Assembly (NCBI RefSeq): GCF_046105845.1
Contig: NZ_CP151004.1
DNA length: 64,000 nt
Reading direction: 5' to 3' (one strand)
Source: Escherichia coli
GTDB taxonomy: Bacteria; Pseudomonadota; Gammaproteobacteria; Enterobacterales; Enterobacteriaceae
In this document: positions 4,415-55,430 of the stretch, piece after piece
How positions within the stretch are numbered: position 1 is the stretch's first letter
Layout: the number at the start of each line of letters is the position of its first letter
Made by a program: the position numbers and the translations under genes
The notes under the pieces: model-generated
The model's database searches: none
Seen by the model: only the letters and a program-made list of their open reading frames with translations
What the model was told of the DNA's origin: nothing

Positions 4415-5389
4415 ATGACAGACTTAATCCAACGCCCTCGTCGCCTGCGCAAATCTCCTGCGCTGCGCGCTATGTTTGAAGAGACAACACTTAGCCTTAA
4501 CGACCTGGTGTTGCCGATCTTTGTTGAAGAAGAAATTGACGACTACAAAGCCGTTGAAGCCATGCCAGGCGTGATGCGCATTCCAGAGAAACATCTGGCA
4601 CGCGAAATTGAACGCATCGCCAACGCCGGTATTCGTTCCGTGATGACTTTCGGCATCTCTCACCATACCGATGAAACCGGCAGCGACGCCTGGCGGGAAG
4701 ATGGACTGGTGGCGCGTATGTCGCGCATATGCAAGCAGACTGTGCCAGAAATGATCGTCATGTCAGACACTTGTTTCTGTGAATACACTTCTCACGGTCA
4801 CTGCGGTGTGCTGTGCGAGCATGGCGTCGACAACGACGCGACTCTGGAAAATTTAGGCAAGCAAGCCGTGGTTGCAGCTGCTGCAGGTGCAGACTTCATC
4901 GCCCCTTCCGCCGCGATGGACGGCCAGGTACAGGCGATTCGTCAGGCGCTGGACGCTGCGGGCTTTAAAGATACGGCGATTATGTCGTATTCGACCAAGT
5001 TCGCCTCTTCCTTTTATGGTCCGTTCCGTGAAGCTGCCGGAAGCGCATTAAAAGGCGACCGCAAAAGCTATCAGATGAACCCGATGAACCGCCGCGAAGC
5101 GATTCGTGAATCACTGCTGGATGAAGCCCAGGGCGCAGACTGCCTGATGGTTAAACCAGCTGGAGCGTACCTCGACATCGTGCGTGAGCTGCGTGAACGT
5201 ACTGAATTGCCGATTGGTGCGTATCAGGTGAGCGGTGAGTACGCGATGATTAAGTTCGCCGCGCTGGCGGGTGCTATAGATGAAGAGAAAGTCGTGCTCG
5301 AAAGCTTAGGTTCGATTAAGCGTGCGGGTGCGGATCTGATTTTCAGCTACTTTGCGCTGGATCTGGCTGAGAAGAAGATTCTGCGTTAA
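4415..5389 (+). CDS. hemB: Porphobilinogen synthase (delta-aminolevulinate dehydratase)
   Basis: Protein begins [28 protein letters not shown]; start trimmed from track ORF (4382) to the ATG at 4415 giving 324 aa. Confidence 0.93.
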
Positions 5390-47514: not shown

Positions 47515-48564
47515 TCAGTCTGTTAGTGTGCGATTATCGATAACAAAACGATATTTCACATCACCACGCAGCATTCGCTCATAGGCTTCATTAATTTGAT
47601 CGGCCCGAATCATCTCTATATCAGCCACGATGCCATGTTCGGCGCAAAAATCGAGCATCTCCTGAGTTTCTGGAATGCCGCCAATCATAGAGCCGGCTAT
47701 CGCGCGGCGTTTCATGATCAGGTTGAAAACTTCCGGCGATTTATGCGGTGTCGCAGGCGCACCAACCAGCGTCATGGTGCCATCGCGCTTCAGCAAGGTG
47801 GTAAAATCGTCGAGATTATGTGGCGCAGCTACTGTATTCAAAATGAAATCGAAACTCTTCAGATGAGCCGCCATCTCATCGGCATTGCGTGAGTTAACAA
47901 CTTCATCGGCCCCCAGGGCTTTTGCCGCTTCGCGTTTTGACTCCGAAGTGGTAAATGCCACCACATGTGCCCCCATCGCGTGGGCCAGCTTAATCCCCAT
48001 ATGTCCCAGACCGCCGATGCCAACCACGCCCACTTTTTTACCCGGCCCGGCCTGCCAGTGACGTAGCGGCGAGTATGTGGTGATCCCTGCACACAATAAA
48101 GGAGCCACCGCCGCCAGCTGCTCTTGCGGGTGACGAATACGCAGAACATATCGCTCATGAACGACGATCTGTTGTGAGTAGCCGCCCAGCGTATGGCCCG
48201 GTTCGTCCGGCGTCGGCGAGTTATAGGTGCCGGTCATGTGATCACAGTAGTTTTCCAGCCCGTCTTCACACTCTTCGCAATGTTTACAACTGTCGACAAT
48301 GCAGCCGACACCGACCAGATCGCCCGTCGCATGTTTTTCTACCTGATCACCAACGGCTACCACACGCCCTACAATTTCATGGCCCGGCACGCAGGGATAA
48401 ACCGTCCCCGCCCACTCGGAACGGACCTGGTGGATATCGGAATGGCAGACGCCACAGTAAGCGATTTCAATTTTGACATCATGCGGTCCCGGTTCACGCC
48501 TGGTAATATCCATCGGTTCCAGCGGTTGTTTAGCGGAATATGCACCAACAGCTTTGATCTTCAT
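47515..48564 (-). CDS. yahK: NADPH-dependent aldehyde reductase (Zn-dependent MDR alcohol dehydrogenase)
   Basis: 349 aa; Zn ligand motif GHEIVGRV and Rossmann GVVGIGGLGHMG; AGGAG RBS. Confidence 0.93.
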   Translation of the reverse strand: MKIKAVGAYSAKQPLEPMDITRREPGPHDVKIEIAYCGVCHSDIHQVRSEWAGTVYPCVPGHEIVGRVVAVGDQVEKHATGDLVGVGCIVDSCKHCEECEDGLENYCDHMTGTYNSPTPDEPGHTLGGYSQQIVVHERYVLRIRHPQEQLAAVAPLLCAGITTYSPLRHWQAGPGKKVGVVGIGGLGHMGIKLAHAMGAHVVAFTTSESKREAAKALGADEVVNSRNADEMAAHLKSFDFILNTVAAPHNLDDFTTLLKRDGTMTLVGAPATPHKSPEVFNLIMKRRAIAGSMIGGIPETQEMLDFCAEHGIVADIEMIRADQINEAYERMLRGDVKYRFVIDNRTLTD

Positions 48565-48650
48565 TGTGTTTACTCCTGATTAGCTATGTGTATTTGGCGA
48601 TGCCTGATATGTCATCGCGGCAAAACGCGTCCATTGAATATAGCCAATAT

Positions 48651-49607
48651 TTAAACCACCCGATCCAGCCCCAACATGCCGCGAGCCTGAATGAAACAGA
48701 GCAGCAACGTTCCCCATAAGGCCATCGTCAGGTAGGGACTTATACCGAGAATATTGAAGCCGCTTTCAATAATTTGCAGAAGAAACAGCGCCAGCACCAT
48801 ACCAATTATCCGCCCGCTGCCGCCGTCCGGATTAACCCCGCCGAGTACTGCCGCGAGGATTGACACCAGCAAGTACGATTCGCCATAAGAGGCCTTAGCC
48901 GAGTTGAGTTTCGACATCATCAAAAATGCCGCTACCGCACAAAGCAAGGCGGAAATGACATACACCCATATCAGCACCCGACGAGTGTTAATACCGGAGT
49001 AAAGTGTTGCTCGTTCGTTAGAACCAATCAGATAAATGGATTTACCGAGCGGCGTTTTCTCCAGCAATATCCACAGCCCCAGCGCCACTGCGGCAAACAA
49101 CCACATCGGTAGCGGAATACCGAACCATTGCGCATGATTCAACCACAGCACCCATGAGGGATAATTGGCAATGGCGCTACCACCTGTCACCAGAATATTT
49201 ATCCCTTTGAGCAACGTCATCATCCCAAGCGTTGCAAGAATTGGCGACACTCGAATACCAGCAATCAATACGCCGTTACATAAACCGATTATCACCGCCG
49301 CGCCAGCGCCCGCCAGTAACGTAGCGACAACCGTAGCAATACCCGGTGGATACTGAGTCGCCACCCACGCCATCACCAGTGAACAGGCGTTAGCAGTGGC
49401 AATAATTGACAAGTTAATGCCACCGCAAAGCATGGTCACCGCCATAGCCAACGCCAGAATGCCCAGCACGGGCATTTGCGAAGCGACGGACTGGAAATTA
49501 CTTATCGACCAGAAAATCTCCGGCATAGTAATGCTGAACGCGGCAACCGTTAGCACCAGCAGGCCGATCAAGTAAAACTCAACGTTATTACGCCACGATT
49601 TTTTCAT
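48651..49607 (-). CDS. Sugar-type ABC transporter permease (second of two)
   Basis: Polytopic membrane protein; ATG 49607 overlaps the stop of the upstream permease (ATGA). Confidence 0.8.
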   Translation of the reverse strand: MKKSWRNNVEFYLIGLLVLTVAAFSITMPEIFWSISNFQSVASQMPVLGILALAMAVTMLCGGINLSIIATANACSLVMAWVATQYPPGIATVVATLLAGAGAAVIIGLCNGVLIAGIRVSPILATLGMMTLLKGINILVTGGSAIANYPSWVLWLNHAQWFGIPLPMWLFAAVALGLWILLEKTPLGKSIYLIGSNERATLYSGINTRRVLIWVYVISALLCAVAAFLMMSKLNSAKASYGESYLLVSILAAVLGGVNPDGGSGRIIGMVLALFLLQIIESGFNILGISPYLTMALWGTLLLCFIQARGMLGLDRVV

Positions 49608-50575
49608 AGCAGACTCCGGTTCTGATGCTGACTCCACGCCGTGGCGCTAATGCTGGCAACGATGATGATGCCTGTGATCAATGTTTGCCAGTAAGACGAG
49701 ACTCCCAATAAATTTAGCCCGTTTTGCATCACTGCCAACAACACCACGCCGAGCAAAGTACCGGTTAACGTGCCGCGCCCGCCGAGCAAACTAGTGCCGC
49801 CAAGCACCACCGCAGCCAGTACTGTCAGCTCATAACCCAGAAGAGAATCGGGGGCGACAGTCATCACCGTCCACGACTGCACTACACCCGCAGCGCCAGA
49901 CATCAATCCCATATAGCCATAGACGAAAAGTTGCAGTTTCAGCACGCTAAAGCCGATGCGACTGGCTGATTCACGATTCCCGCCAAGGGCATAAATTTTG
50001 CGCCCTACACTGGTGAAATTCATGATAAACGCTGTCAGCAGCACCACCGTAATCATGGCGATCAGCGGCAGACCAAGGCCATAGTCATAGCCGTCAGCAT
50101 CGGTGTACTTGAACAACATTATCCCCTGCTCAAACCACGGCGGAAAGTCGTACAGCCACACACCTTTACTCAACCATAACAGCAGGCCATAGAAAATATT
50201 CAGCGTCGAAATGGTGATGATGATAGACGGCACCCGTAGGCGATTAACCAGTAAGGCGTTTATTAAGCCAAGTAAAATGCCGATGCCGCCCGCCAGGGCA
50301 AACGCGACAGCAAAGTTGCCACCAATTTTTTGCAGCAACAGCACCATGCCGTATTGCGCAATGATGGTCATTGCCGGAAACGAAATATCAATCCCACCGG
50401 AAATTAACACCACAAACAAACCACAGGCGAGAATAGTCAACATGGCATAGTTATTGGCGAGATCGTACAAATTACCGAATGTCAGAAACTCGTCGCTGCG
50501 CCAGGCAAGGCCGACAAACAGCCCCACAATCAGTAATGCCAGCCAGAATTCATGGCGTTTTTTCAGTTCAGCCAT
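49604..50575 (-). CDS. Sugar-type ABC transporter permease (first of two)
   Basis: 323-aa polytopic membrane protein; start overlaps the ATPase stop. Confidence 0.8.
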   Translation of the reverse strand: MAELKKRHEFWLALLIVGLFVGLAWRSDEFLTFGNLYDLANNYAMLTILACGLFVVLISGGIDISFPAMTIIAQYGMVLLLQKIGGNFAVAFALAGGIGILLGLINALLVNRLRVPSIIITISTLNIFYGLLLWLSKGVWLYDFPPWFEQGIMLFKYTDADGYDYGLGLPLIAMITVVLLTAFIMNFTSVGRKIYALGGNRESASRIGFSVLKLQLFVYGYMGLMSGAAGVVQSWTVMTVAPDSLLGYELTVLAAVVLGGTSLLGGRGTLTGTLLGVVLLAVMQNGLNLLGVSSYWQTLITGIIIVASISATAWSQHQNRSLL

Positions 50576-52052
50576 TTACCACCTCCGCAATTCTGGCCTG
50601 AGAACTGCTGTCAGGCAGGAAGCTATGGGTGATCTGACCTTTTTGCATTACCAAAATCCGGTGGCTTTGATACCACGCTTCTTCAATTTCATCGCAGATC
50701 ATCAATACCGCAATGCCATGAGCCGCCAGATCGCTGATAATGCCGTATATTCCTGCTTTGTTGGCGATATCAACACCGACTGTCGGGCTATCGAGAATCA
50801 ACAGTCGTGGCCCAATCGCCAGCCATTTGGCGATCGATACTCGCTGCGCGTTACCCCCGGAAAGCGTATTCACCGGGAGATGTGGGTCAGAGACTTTGAT
50901 GGTCAATGCCTTGATTAGCCTGTCCACCAGGTCACGCACTTTAGCTTCACTCAGAAAGCCGAAGCGATCTTTTACCTTGTGAAAAACAGTGCTAATGATG
51001 TTGTCTTCAATAGATTGCGCCATCACCAAACCGCGCGACATGCGATCTTCCGAAACATAACCAATACCGTGGCGGATGGCGTCCTGGTTACTATGCAGTG
51101 TAACCGGCTGACCGTTGATGAGGATCTCACCAGCATCCGGTCGGGTCATACCAAACAGACTCAGACATAATTCCGTGCGCCCCGCACCAAGCAGGCCAAC
51201 AATCGACACCACTTCGCCCGCTTCCACCCGCAAGTTAATATTTTGATATTCCCCCTGACGACTTAAATTACGCACCTCCAGCACCCGGGTGCTGGATTTT
51301 CCCTGCCACAACTCTCGCACCTGATATTCAAACTCCTGGCCGGTCATCAGGAAACCGAGTTGTTTTGTGGTCATCTCTGCAGCCGGAAAGGTCCCGACCA
51401 GCTCACCATCTTTCAACACTGAAATACGGTCGGAAACTTCCATCACTTCTTCCAGACGATGACTGACGAAGACCACGCAGATCCCGCGTTCCCGCAATTG
51501 ATGCACCACCTGTAATAACCCTTGCACTTCCTGATGGGTCAGCGAAGCGGTGGGTTCATCCATCACGATCAACCGTGCGTCCTGCGCCAGTGCACGGCAA
51601 ATTGCCACCAGCTGACAGCGGGCAATTGAAAGCTCAGAAACGAGCGTATCCAGTGGCAATGTGACGTTAATACTGGTCATTGCCGCCTGCGCCACCTCAC
51701 GCAGACGACGGCGGTTAACAAACAGACCGTGGTGATAGTGATTCACGGCGATATTCTCCCAGACACTCAGGTTAGGAAATAAAGAGAGGTCCTGATAAAT
51801 CACCTGAATCCCCTGCGCCACCGAAGCGGCGGGTGTCAGCTTTGACCAGTTTTTCCCACCAAGCGTAATTTCCGCCCCCTCATCCGGGCGATAAACACCG
51901 GACATAATTTTAATCAACGTCGATTTACCACAGCCGTTTTGCCCGGCAAGGCAGTGCACCTCACCCGACATAAAGTCGAGAGAAACATCGCGCAGCGCTC
52001 GCGTGGCATGAAACGTTTTGTTGATATGACGAAGGGAAAGGAAGGTTTCCAT
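50568..52052 (-). CDS. Sugar-type ABC transporter ATP-binding protein with duplicated nucleotide-binding domains
   Basis: Walker A GQNGCGKST in the first half and LSGGNAQR signature in the second; two-NBD architecture typical of ribose/AI-2-type importers; ATG 52052 preferred over the TTG at 52067. Confidence 0.85.
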   Translation of the reverse strand: METFLSLRHINKTFHATRALRDVSLDFMSGEVHCLAGQNGCGKSTLIKIMSGVYRPDEGAEITLGGKNWSKLTPAASVAQGIQVIYQDLSLFPNLSVWENIAVNHYHHGLFVNRRRLREVAQAAMTSINVTLPLDTLVSELSIARCQLVAICRALAQDARLIVMDEPTASLTHQEVQGLLQVVHQLRERGICVVFVSHRLEEVMEVSDRISVLKDGELVGTFPAAEMTTKQLGFLMTGQEFEYQVRELWQGKSSTRVLEVRNLSRQGEYQNINLRVEAGEVVSIVGLLGAGRTELCLSLFGMTRPDAGEILINGQPVTLHSNQDAIRHGIGYVSEDRMSRGLVMAQSIEDNIISTVFHKVKDRFGFLSEAKVRDLVDRLIKALTIKVSDPHLPVNTLSGGNAQRVSIAKWLAIGPRLLILDSPTVGVDIANKAGIYGIISDLAAHGIAVLMICDEIEEAWYQSHRILVMQKGQITHSFLPDSSSQARIAEVVNG

Positions 52053-52074
52053 AGCATCCCCTGGCAATAAGAAT

Positions 52075-52090
52075 CGGGGCTTTCGCCCCG
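52075..52090 (-). other. Perfect hairpin between the binding-protein and ATPase genes
   Basis: CGGGGC-TTTC-GCCCCG. Confidence 0.4.
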
Positions 52091-52100
52091 AAGAAATGGA

Positions 52101-53087
52101 TTAATAAAGTGAGTCGATATTGTCTTTGTTGACCAGTAATACCTTATGGAAACGGATAATTCGCTTATCCATATCTACGTCGGCCTTACCGAGATTCTCC
52201 ATTTCTAATCCAGGTTTGATCTCTTCACCCTTCAGCAACGTGCTGGCGACGGCCGCGAGTGCGTAACCTGCAGAGGCCGGATCGTAAGTAATCCCTTCAG
52301 TGATATCACCACTTTTAATCAGTGATGCCGCCTGTGAAGGGATCATCATGCCATAGACTGCGACTTTATTTTTCGCCCGTTTCTCTTTCACTGCACGTCC
52401 CGCGCCAATCGGACCGTTTGAACCAAAGGAGACAACCGCTTTCAAGTCAGGATAGGTTTTCATCAGGTCCAGTGTGGTTCGACGTGAGTCATCCACACTC
52501 TCGGCAACCGGCATGCGGCGGGTAACTTCATGCATATCCGGGTAATGCTCTTTCTGGTATTTCACCAGCAAGTCAGCCCATAAGTTATGCTGCGGCACGG
52601 TCAAACTACCCACGTAAATCACATAGCCGCCCTTGCCACCCATGCGTTTCGCCATATGCTCAACATATTCAGCGGCAAATTTTTCGTTATCAATGATTTC
52701 GATATCCCAGTTAGCACTTGGCTGACCGGGGGATTCGTTGGTCAGAACCACAATTCCGGCATCTCGCGCTTTTTTGAATACCGGTTCCAGCACGTTGGCA
52801 TCGTTTGGCACAATTGTAATTGCATTAACCTTACGGGCGATTAAATCCTCAATGATTTTAACCTGTTGCGGAGCATCAGTACTTGAAGGCCCCACCTGTG
52901 ACGCATTAACACCAAAGGCTTTACCCGCCTCGACCACACCTTCGCCCATGCGATTAAACCAAGGCATACCATCGACTTTAGAGATATTCACCACGACTTT
53001 TTCCGCTGCCTGGAGCGGCGCAGAAATTAGCGCAGCGCCTAATAACAGCGAAGACACCATATTGATAACAAAACGTTTATTCATCAT
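52101..53087 (-). CDS. Periplasmic substrate-binding protein (type 1 sugar-binding fold, RbsB/LsrB-like)
   Basis: 328 aa; signal peptide ending LQAAEK; GAGG RBS; C-terminal ...KVLLVNKDNIDSLY resembles the LsrB C-terminus as I recall it. Confidence 0.8.
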   Translation of the reverse strand: MMNKRFVINMVSSLLLGAALISAPLQAAEKVVVNISKVDGMPWFNRMGEGVVEAGKAFGVNASQVGPSSTDAPQQVKIIEDLIARKVNAITIVPNDANVLEPVFKKARDAGIVVLTNESPGQPSANWDIEIIDNEKFAAEYVEHMAKRMGGKGGYVIYVGSLTVPQHNLWADLLVKYQKEHYPDMHEVTRRMPVAESVDDSRRTTLDLMKTYPDLKAVVSFGSNGPIGAGRAVKEKRAKNKVAVYGMMIPSQAASLIKSGDITEGITYDPASAGYALAAVASTLLKGEEIKPGLEMENLGKADVDMDKRIIRFHKVLLVNKDNIDSLY

Positions 53088-53244
53088 TTCAGCCTCATTG
53101 CAGGGTAGTCAGGAAGTGTTCGCCCAAATTAGCGCGCTGGAGAGAATAAGAATTTTCGAATATTTTTATGCAGAATAAACAGCCCTATTTCAGGCAGCTA
53201 TTAAAAATTTGGTTATAAATATGGACAAAACGGGCAGAAACAAT

Positions 53245-53266
53245 AAGTGTGACAATCATCACGTAA
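53245..53266 (-). promoter_or_regulatory. Candidate CRP site upstream of the ABC transporter operon
   Basis: AAGTGTGACAATCATCACGTAA (TGTGA-N6-TCACG), about 170 bp upstream of the binding-protein ATG. Confidence 0.5.
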
Positions 53267-53337
53267 AAAATAGCAAAATAAACAAAATTAGCGATACTTT
53301 ATGTTTGTGAGCTTATTTCGCGTAGAAAAATAGTTAT

Positions 53338-53748
53338 CTACACAACGTCAATAAGGGCATATTCTTCAAAGATAACGTCCATTTCGGGTGAATAGTATCC
53401 TTCTGCCTGGAAAAAACGACGGTGTTCATTACGCCAATATTCAAGACTGAGGTCACCTTCACCTTCCTTACGGGCAAGCTCCGCGGTGACATCAGAAAAG
53501 CGCAGTAAATGCAGGCCAATCACTCTGATAACACAGACAGGCTCACCACGGCTATTTTCTACAATCTTATACTCACCAATCATCGGAAATGCGTTGTCTT
53601 CAATACATCCCGCCAGCGAACCACAGGAAGCTGTTTTAACACCAGTCGCAATCAACGTTGCGAGGTGATCGGCCAACGCTGCTGAATCGCCAAAAGTACA
53701 AAAGGAAGCATGGGGATATTTTTGTGAGATTTTTTCTTTTATGGTCAT
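53338..53748 (-). CDS. Small ASCH-like domain protein (putative)
   Basis: 136 aa from ATG 53748 (MTIKEKISQKYP...); a G-x-K-T motif (GVKTASCG) and overall size resemble ASCH/YqfB-type proteins; weak RBS. Confidence 0.4.
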   Translation of the reverse strand: MTIKEKISQKYPHASFCTFGDSAALADHLATLIATGVKTASCGSLAGCIEDNAFPMIGEYKIVENSRGEPVCVIRVIGLHLLRFSDVTAELARKEGEGDLSLEYWRNEHRRFFQAEGYYSPEMDVIFEEYALIDVV

Positions 53749-54047
53749 GAGAATATTTTCGCGATTACGGAAAAACAAATCACATCTTAATTACTGTTGA
53801 TAACCATCAGCAAGAGTATCATTGGTTTTTCGATACTGAATCTTTTTTATCCGAAGCAGGTCACATTTATGGCCTGATAAATACCTTTGTTAAAACTCAC
53901 TTTTGTGTATTTCTCTCAAATAATCCCCTGGAAATTATGCCGGGAGATTATAAAGTTCAGGATCATTCATTAGCAAACCATTGCTGCCCCACTCCCTGGG
54001 GCTTTAAATCTCTTACGATTCACCATTGCAGGCGTTTCAAATGCGTA

Positions 54048-55430
54048 TCAACCTGCCACACTCCCCCACACCAGTTGTCCTTTATGGAACGTTGCCGTTC
54101 TCGGCGAGATACGCGCCACCGCCTCGGCGGAACAGGAGGCGTCCACCAGCACAAAACTGGCGTCATCCTGCGCTTTGGGCCACACGCGCTCGCCTTTTTC
54201 ATTCAGCGGCAATACATCGCCAGTGGCTAAAAACAGCGAACGGGACAAATTCTGTTCGTTAGGGCGAATATAGAGCTGCGCGTACAGATTGGCTTTTTCC
54301 AGCATGTCGCCCAGGCCGTAAGGTGACCAGTGGTCGATAACGCTGTCAGTTCCTGTCATGACTTTTACGCCTTTGTCGTGCAGTTGTTTGAGCGGCATAT
54401 GCAGCGTGCCAATCGGCACCGTCGAAGCGATAGAAATTTGCTGCGCCGCCATCCGGTGCGCCAGTTCATCTACCTGTTGTTCGTTGAGCGTTGCCAGCGC
54501 GAAGGCGTGGCTGATGGTCAGCTTGCCCTTCAGCTGTGGCGTTTTCTCTACCGTTTCAACCATATAGTTGATGGCTGCCACGCCTGCCGGAGTGGTTTCG
54601 TGCAGGTGAATATCGACGCCTTTGTCGTAGTCCAGCGCAATCTGGAACATGGTGTCGAGGGATTTTTCCATCGCGCCATCAACACTGGTTGGGTCCAGCC
54701 CGCCGACGTAATGCGCCCCCGCCTGCATCGCTTCGCGCATTAAGGGTTCTGATTTCGACAGCAGCAAACCGTGCTGCGGGAAGGCGACAATTTCACACTC
54801 GAAGCCCGCCTGACGTCGCGCCAGCACCGCCTGCAAATTTTGCAGATTTTTCAGGCCGGAAACCGGTTCGATATTGCAGTGGCTGCGGGCAATGGTAGTG
54901 CCTTTCGACTGCAATAAATCGATCAGTTTTTCCGCTCGTTCCTGAGTGTACGGTTGCAGCTCCGGCAGCATTTTCTGCTCGAGTTTGATCATGTCCTGGA
55001 TGGTGGTGCCTGCCGGGCGATTGAGCGAGCGCCACGGCCCGCCGTAAAAGGTTTTGTCGAGATGAATATGCATGTCACGGGTGGTGGGCAGCATCAGCTT
55101 ACCGCCAGCGTCATAGTGCGGCAGCGTGGCGTCCGGATGCTGCTTGTTCTCGCGCAGGGCAACAATTTTGCCGTTCTGAATCTCTACGGTCTGGTGCGCC
55201 GTGCGGGTCTGTACCGCCACGCCATTTTCGTAGTCAAAACCGGTTTCCAGCAGCACGTTGTCGAGATAGTAGTGCGGGTCAGTGATTTTCATGGTGTTAT
55301 TCGCGTCGCAGTGGGTTGTGCCAGAGACTGCCGCATGGGCGAGCGGCACAGAGGTACCAAACAGCGCGGCGGCGGTGACCATCTTACCGCTCTGGCTCAG
55401 AAACTCACGGCGGCTATTGTTTTTTTTCAT
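54048..55430 (-). CDS. yahJ: Tat-exported amidohydrolase-superfamily deaminase-like protein
   Basis: 460 aa; twin-arginine signal MKKNNSRREFLSQSGKMVTAAALFGTSVPLAHA; metal-dependent amidohydrolase HxH motif (MHIHLD). Confidence 0.9.
   Translation of the reverse strand: MKKNNSRREFLSQSGKMVTAAALFGTSVPLAHAAVSGTTHCDANNTMKITDPHYYLDNVLLETGFDYENGVAVQTRTAHQTVEIQNGKIVALRENKQHPDATLPHYDAGGKLMLPTTRDMHIHLDKTFYGGPWRSLNRPAGTTIQDMIKLEQKMLPELQPYTQERAEKLIDLLQSKGTTIARSHCNIEPVSGLKNLQNLQAVLARRQAGFECEIVAFPQHGLLLSKSEPLMREAMQAGAHYVGGLDPTSVDGAMEKSLDTMFQIALDYDKGVDIHLHETTPAGVAAINYMVETVEKTPQLKGKLTISHAFALATLNEQQVDELAHRMAAQQISIASTVPIGTLHMPLKQLHDKGVKVMTGTDSVIDHWSPYGLGDMLEKANLYAQLYIRPNEQNLSRSLFLATGDVLPLNEKGERVWPKAQDDASFVLVDASCSAEAVARISPRTATFHKGQLVWGSVAG

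Follow-up and report, generated by a model that had tools for sequence, protein, structure and literature searches.

A stand-alone ASCH-domain protein encoded between yahJ and the L-arabinose importer genes of Escherichia coli, possibly a small N-acyl hydrolase resembling YqfB

Within a 64,000-nucleotide stretch of Escherichia coli DNA (contig NZ_CP151004.1, hereafter the window), a small open reading frame (ORF) lies between yahJ, which encodes a protein of the amidohydrolase superfamily, and the genes of an ATP-binding cassette (ABC) importer. The locus raises the question of whether this ORF is a functional gene, what its product does and whether it acts together with its neighbours. An earlier note, made from the sequence alone, had tentatively described it as coding for a protein reminiscent of YqfB-type ASCH proteins that might share a class of acylated or modified pyrimidine-like substrates with YahJ and the importer. 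The analysis presented here leads to a cytoplasmic, stand-alone ASCH protein that is no partner of YahJ or of the importer, and which we lean towards regarding as a small YqfB-like N-acyl hydrolase. The ASCH call itself is correct yet already known, as databases annotate the gene in thousands of E. coli genomes.

The ORF of 136 amino acids (aa) occupies exactly the interval 53338-53748 that the earlier note had given without a strand; it runs on the minus strand from an ATG at 53748-53746 to a stop codon at 53340-53338. The longest version of the frame comprises 146 aa from a TTG at 53778, with ATG 53748 as an internal start. ATG 53748 is the true start, since RefSeq holds an identical coding sequence (CDS) of 411 nucleotides (nt) named 'ASCH domain-containing protein', since the homologues of other genera, 136-137 aa in length, have the aligned Met as their first residue, and since the upstream TTG is replaced by TTA in Escherichia sp. 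E2593. Judged by its Pfam ASCH match, its 521 homologues (E<=1e-5) and the RefSeq CDS, the frame is far beyond a chance ORF. The predicted protein is acidic (15 kDa, pI 4.9, net charge about -8), and no signal peptide was found in it.

The Pfam ASCH profile (PF04266) matches the protein with 78.9 bits against a cut-off of 21.2 (E 5.4e-22) over profile positions 5-102 of 103, and the predicted structure adopts the PUA-like beta-barrel/alpha fold of the ASCH superfamily, both of which bear out the ASCH assignment. Sequence matches to known structures were obtained for 1T62 (EF3133, 'Pfam DUF984'; E 5e-19) and 3S9X (an ASCH domain of L. crispatus; E 4.9e-16). In fold comparisons, the scores were 21.7 for 3S9X, 18.6 for 1T62, 13.5 for YqfB (9KYF; 99/102 residues, rmsd 2.0 Å, 16% identity), 11.6 for PH0355 (2Z0T) and 10.0 for ZmASCH (5GUQ). 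The similarity to 1T62 and 3S9X, together with the signature GxK[TR]A[TS] and AxxEGEGDxS..YW...H, shows the protein to be a single ASCH-fold domain of the EF3133/3S9X subfamily (formerly DUF984; COG4405 'YhfF'), and JGI labels its homologues 'uncharacterized protein YhfF'. An exhaustive search at E<=1e-3 returned 1762 cluster representatives (50%-identity clusters). Same-length homologues with 50-65% identity are found across the Enterobacterales (Yersinia, Kosakonia, Pantoea, Proteus, Erwinia, Xenorhabdus and others), and the range extends to Pseudomonas, Moraxella, alphaproteobacteria and Firmicutes. Because neither EF3133 nor 3S9X has an assigned function, the match to them names a family and not an activity. 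Zero NCBIfam families matched the protein at E<=1 among the curated models, a set in which any existing YqfB model would be found. Assignment to the YqfB family was rejected on this result, on the length of 136 aa against 103 and on the loss of Arg26, an essential YqfB residue whose position is taken by Gly; the label YqfB-type is thus given up.

YqfB nonetheless offers a reasonable basis for reading the conserved residues. It is an amidohydrolase of N4-acylcytosine and N4-acetylcytidine (ac4C), as the earlier note had stated, in which the exchanges K21A, T24A and R26A abolish activity while T24S retains approximately the wild-type level, Glu74Ala lowers it 100- to 1000-fold and His70Ala about 10-fold, and in which Arg26 has been proposed to form the oxyanion hole (PMC6972931). 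According to the summary in a 2026 preprint, a later crystal structure identified the nucleophile as a water molecule activated via Thr24 (bioRxiv 10.64898/2026.02.27.708502). The same preprint surveyed the superfamily more widely and found that 19 of 19 diverse ASCH proteins stripped ac4C from tRNA in vitro, that Lys and Glu/Thr are essential and that the role of the Arg is protein-specific, in a set that left out those bacterial sequences in which the last octapeptide position is substituted (bioRxiv 10.64898/2026.02.27.708502).

Residues were mapped with hhalign by comparing a 121-sequence subfamily alignment with YqfB, which equates G36, K38, S41, G43, L91, A92 and E95 of the ASCH protein with G19, K21, T24, R26, H70, A71 and E74 of YqfB, respectively, which fits both the placement of the motifs and the superposition of the folds. 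The superfamily octapeptide G-x-K-x-x-[E/T/S]-x-R is represented at its Gly, Lys and [E/T/S] positions by G36, K38 and S41, and the G-x-K-T motif reported earlier is found as G36-V37-K38-T39; the terminal Arg is replaced by G43, which still allows superfamily membership. In this mapping, K38, S41 and E95 supply the catalytic Lys21, Thr24 (for which Ser is tolerated) and Glu74 of YqfB. All three are strongly conserved in the subfamily (K38 in 118 of the 121 sequences, Thr or Ser at position 41 in 117, E95 in 120), and so are E97 (120/121) and D99 (116/121) of the EGEGD motif as well as W105 (118/121) and H109 (116/121) on the helix that follows it. At position 43, the residues seen are S, G, W, A and C, with an Arg in 0/121 sequences. 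The structural comparison to YqfB that had been suggested for this ORF holds for the fold and fails at the essential Arg26.

The ASCH protein would most likely remove an N-acyl group from cytosine, be it as a nucleobase, in a nucleoside or in tRNA, or from a comparable small amide. Its Lys38/Ser41/Glu95 constellation would be that of Lys21/Thr24/Glu74 in YqfB, and water would be activated in the cleft that separates strand beta2 from the helix after the EGEGD loop. An equivalent of YqfB Arg26 is lacking, and the protein has the invariant Glu97, Asp99, Trp105 and His109 instead. Deacylase-type hydrolysis via K38, S41 and E95 is what the sequence comparison supports best as a mechanism. Since the Arg is missing and an additional invariant EGEGD..W..H set is present, the substrate or the stabilisation of the transition state probably differs from that of YqfB, which E. 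coli also has.

Several observations weigh against an N-acyl hydrolase of this kind. In the literature searched, no measured activity was found for any member of the EF3133/3S9X subfamily, the residue mapping depends on a weak alignment (hhalign probability 43%) combined with a global fold superposition, and the equivalent of the essential Arg26 is missing. No Shine-Dalgarno sequence is present in the 21 nt 5' of the ATG (CGTAATCGCGAAAATATTCTC), as this segment contains no GG dinucleotide; the ribosome-binding site is therefore weak, as had been suspected, while the start codon, suspected of the same, is a canonical ATG. Furthermore, in a neighbourhood sample of five encoding contigs and 80 further genome loci (own ORF calling, all-vs-all clustering of flanking ORFs), GNAT was the most frequent Pfam family among unique neighbours up to two genes away (13/248, against 3/124 in a control set at least three genes away in the same loci), but this enrichment is not significant (odds ratio 2.2, one-sided Fisher p = 0.16), and the association is at best a hint compatible with an acyl-related function.

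The absence of an Arg26 equivalent also bears on a possible, if rather doubtful, alternative, in which the protein performs a chemistry other than that of YqfB, either as a metal-assisted hydrolase or nuclease or as a deacylase or esterase whose substrate is no nucleoside; EGEGD...W105...H109 would then form the active site, and K38 and S41 would belong to a shared scaffold. E97, D99, W105 and H109 match K38 and E95 in invariance and are absent from YqfB, and a second enzyme with the substrate of YqfB would be redundant, because E. coli already possesses the first. ZmASCH, a member of the same superfamily, is reported to be a metal-dependent single-stranded RNA (ssRNA) ribonuclease (cited in bioRxiv 10.64898/2026.02.27.708502; PMC5615036). 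The fusion partners of the subfamily are metabolic, comprising GNAT as the most frequent (in at least 4 of the 33 multidomain representatives), cupin, pyridoxal-phosphate (PLP) enzymes, histidine phosphatase and RidA; DUF2007 occurs as well, no other Pfam family is common to more than 4 of the 33, and about ten subfamily proteins of approximately 315 aa carry an N-terminal region of approximately 190 aa. Against such a chemistry stands the K/[TS]/E triad, which is conserved exactly as in the amidohydrolase, and every ASCH protein assayed to date removes the acetyl group of ac4C from tRNA in vitro (bioRxiv 10.64898/2026.02.27.708502). The YqfB-like N-acyl hydrolase thus remains the preferred reading.

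It is improbable that the protein acts as a non-catalytic 'reader' module for nucleic acids or modified bases, or as a ribonuclease like ZmASCH. Its strongly acidic character (net charge about -8, pI 4.9) speaks against both, octapeptide position 6 is Ser/Thr instead of the Glu of the GKER group (ZmASCH, TRIP4, EOLA1), and identity to ZmASCH is 10%. The features of a ZmASCH-type ribonuclease, namely a GKER octapeptide, a basic nucleic-acid-binding surface and metal-dependent ssRNA cleavage, appear to be lacking as far as the sequence can tell, and no nucleic-acid-related neighbour is conserved. Neither PADLOC nor PHROGs yielded a match to the protein, and a defence or phage role was rejected on this ground. 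Of the 12 matches in a phage collection, most are UNVERIFIED_ORG fragments or contigs of bacteria. Among contigs filed in that collection, those from Salmonella carry a 46%-identical ASCH paralogue adjoining aceK. The fragment 'Escherichia phage ECO95 1-6-1', itself an UNVERIFIED_ORG entry, also carries this paralogue; since none of the complete E. coli genomes matches it, the fragment is probably Salmonella DNA.

Still less credible is the single pathway proposed for the locus, in which the importer would take up, the ASCH protein deacylate and YahJ deaminate acylated or modified pyrimidine-like compounds. The gene order, all on the minus strand, is yahD-yahE-fdrA-yahG-yahI-yahJ, a 299-nt gap, the ASCH gene, a 250-nt gap, four ABC genes and yahK, with the ASCH ORF between the yahJ stop (54048) and the start of the first ABC gene (53087). 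The importer is the L-arabinose system Aau, because the published cloning primers for the P_Z0415 promoter map at sequence level to the spacer between the ASCH and binding-protein genes (53376-53393 with one mismatch and 53086-53103 exactly; PMC11127945 supplement); from their positions, the Paau reporter fragment consists of this spacer and the final 56 nt of the ASCH reading frame. The Aau promoter is induced by L-arabinose only, induction is abolished in an araC mutant, and the aau locus adds to fitness in the mouse gut (PMC11127945). In keeping with a sugar importer, the binding protein is of the monosaccharide-type Peripla_BP_4 family, RhaS/LsrB-like and below both equivalog cut-offs.

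YahJ does not fit the proposed pathway either. It belongs to the NCBIfam PRK06846 amidohydrolase subfamily (716 bits) and falls under every cytosine-deaminase cut-off (70-103 bits against 403-483), so that its description as a cytosine-deaminase-family enzyme is not upheld (103 bits against a cut-off of 438). Its N-terminus (MKKNNSRREFLSQSGKMVTAAALFGTSVPLAHA) is a twin-arginine (Tat) signal, and YahJ appears on a list of predicted Tat substrates in which no function is assigned to it (PMC7549933). YahJ is hence predicted to be periplasmic, whereas the ASCH protein is cytoplasmic. A 3.7-fold change is comparable to those of malF, malK and xylF, which appear beside it among 1187 differentially expressed genes. 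In Escherichia sp. E2593, whose ASCH protein is 90% identical, the order is yahJ-ASCH-yahK with no importer and with a 74-nt relic of the last permease gene.

Outside Escherichia, neither the closest relatives nor the 80 further loci have a YahJ-like or ABC neighbour. The gene follows lysS in Yersinia canariae (65% identical), stands beside arsC and lac genes in Pseudenterobacter timonensis (63% identical) and lies between an mgtE-like gene and a chemoreceptor gene in Kosakonia cowanii, while in Escherichia albertii (52% identical) a P2-like prophage carries it as apparent cargo, flanked by ogr and gpD. No conserved partner was found among the 80 loci, in which no flanking family occurs at more than 15; the recurrent families LysR, Zn-ADH, SDR and LysE are generic and variable in position and strand, and over the 80 loci and five contigs, YahJ-type and Aau-type clusters are restricted to Escherichia. 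A conserved neighbourhood, compatible substrates and compatible compartments, as a functional ASCH-YahJ-importer cluster would show them, are thus all lacking; the ASCH gene stands alone, and a partnership with YahJ or Aau is not supported. The E. albertii homologue (142 aa; L007 7001-7429) is apparent cargo with an Ogr/Delta-like gene on one side, gpD and tail genes on the other and an adjoining hok-like toxin gene. In Yersinia canariae and Pseudenterobacter timonensis, a DUF6998 gene (PF22522; L002 9843-10736 and L004 5641-6519) is found at a distance of three genes from the ASCH gene, on one side in the former species and on the other in the latter, in contexts that are otherwise unrelated.

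A decaying or unexpressed ORF without present function in E. coli is the least believable explanation, for although the Shine-Dalgarno sequence is missing, the gene is deleted in more than half of the complete genomes, within-species dN/dS reaches 0.57 and direct proof of translation was looked for and not found, the ORF is intact in five of the five Escherichia alleles compared and no signature residue is altered in them. Among E. coli alleles, dN/dS ranges over 0.21-0.57; in the comparison with Escherichia sp. E2593, where dS is about 0.22, it is 0.23-0.32.

The gene is dispensable in E. coli, as it is deleted in more than half of the complete genomes, K-12 included. The full gene is present in 2212 of 5426 complete E. 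coli genomes and the Aau binding protein in 2215, while about 1000 further genomes retain no more of the ASCH ORF than its last 48 nt. The K-12 spacer between yahJ and yahK combines, as a mosaic, the region directly following yahJ with a 70-nt piece that includes those 48 nt and with about 72 nt from the 3' terminus of the final aau permease gene, and from these relics it follows that K-12-type genomes lost Aau and the ASCH gene by two deletions. The relics correspond to window positions 53316-53385 and 48449-48722 (L010, K-12, 4509-4884; L009 2258-2633). Genomes without the Aau operon (48725-53319), namely K-12 and E2593, keep a relic of the last aau gene (L008 8412-8647). The endpoints of the aau deletion are near-identical in E2593 (48724 | 53320) and K-12 (48722 | 53316), which together with the shared relic argues for an ancestral presence of Aau followed by loss, or for the spread of one deletion allele. 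The operon has been termed 'horizontally acquired' O-island 17 (PMC11127945).

Table 1. Positions of the ASCH gene, its motifs and the surrounding elements in the window.
Feature	Position	Strand	Description
yahJ	54048..55430	minus	amidohydrolase superfamily, twin-arginine (SRREFL) signal peptide
Hairpin GCCCCA-GGGAG-TGGGGC	53986..54002	minus	directly 3' of yahJ stop
Sigma-70-like promoter candidate TTGCTA-18 nt-TATAAT	53947..53976	minus	about 200 nt 5' of the ATG; consensus scan 10/12
ASCH ORF	53338..53748	minus	136-aa product
ASCH octapeptide G36-V-K38-T-A-S41-C-G43 (GVKTASCG)	53620..53643	minus	GGT GTT AAA ACA GCT TCC TGT GGT
EGEGD motif E95-G-E97-G-D99	53452..53466	minus	GAA GGT GAA GGT GAC; subfamily-specific
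P_Z0415 (Paau) reporter fragment	53086..53393	minus	AraC-dependent, L-arabinose-induced promoter of the downstream ABC operon
K-12 70-nt relic	53316..53385		last 48 nt of ASCH ORF + 22 nt downstream; blastn, K-12 and Ecol_732 yahJ-yahK spacers against the window
First ABC-operon gene, binding protein	52101..53087	minus	Peripla_BP_4

The ASCH gene would probably have its own promoter and be translated by initiation without a Shine-Dalgarno sequence on an A/U-rich leader. The promoter candidate (Table 1) is unchanged in the window, O157:H7 and Escherichia sp. E2593, and strain W46 shows one change in the -35 element (TTGTTA). The hairpin behind yahJ has no T-run and is therefore no canonical terminator, and the terminator scan did not call it; the K-12 deletion endpoint (53984/53985) adjoins this GC-rich hairpin. 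An RNA element in the 299-nt leader was considered and rejected, as no Rfam match was found there at E<=1 and its folding is unremarkable (z-score -0.03). Inside Paau, TGCCCGTTTTGTCCATA (53220-53236, minus strand) resembles an AraC half-site (TAGC-N7-TCCATA) with two mismatches; a window-wide scan for AraC half-sites gave 36 matches against 42.8 expected, which is not above chance.

As a sequence feature, the ORF is ordinary, given that two crystal structures of the subfamily exist. Amide hydrolysis by this protein would mean that a Lys/Ser-Thr/Glu core suffices without the Arg, and activity on ac4C would give some lineages of E. coli a second hydrolase of this type. The analysis of the context corrects an attractive but wrong pathway inference, as the sugar imported is L-arabinose and the predicted location of YahJ is the periplasm.

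Compared with known systems, the ASCH protein is closest to EF3133 of Enterococcus faecalis (1T62) and 3S9X of Lactobacillus crispatus, which are 27-30% identical to it and slightly longer (153-166 aa against 136 aa), both being structural-genomics entries. YqfB differs from it more strongly, with 12-16% identity and 103 aa, whereas the ASCH protein has an extra N-terminal helix, carries Gly43 and Leu91 in place of Arg26 and His70, and has in E97, D99, W105 and H109 invariant residues with no counterpart in YqfB; the isoelectric points are 4.9 and 4.7, respectively. While yqfB is a core gene of E. coli, the ASCH gene is accessory. The GKER-type ASCH proteins (TthASCH 2DP9, EOLA1, TRIP4-ASCH and ZmASCH) share the superfamily and the conserved Lys with the ASCH protein, and all of them are reported to deacetylate ac4C in tRNA in vitro (bioRxiv 10.64898/2026.02.27.708502). 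Taken together, YqfB is the nearest characterised fold and, with three of its four key residues retained in the ASCH protein, a reasonable mechanistic lead.
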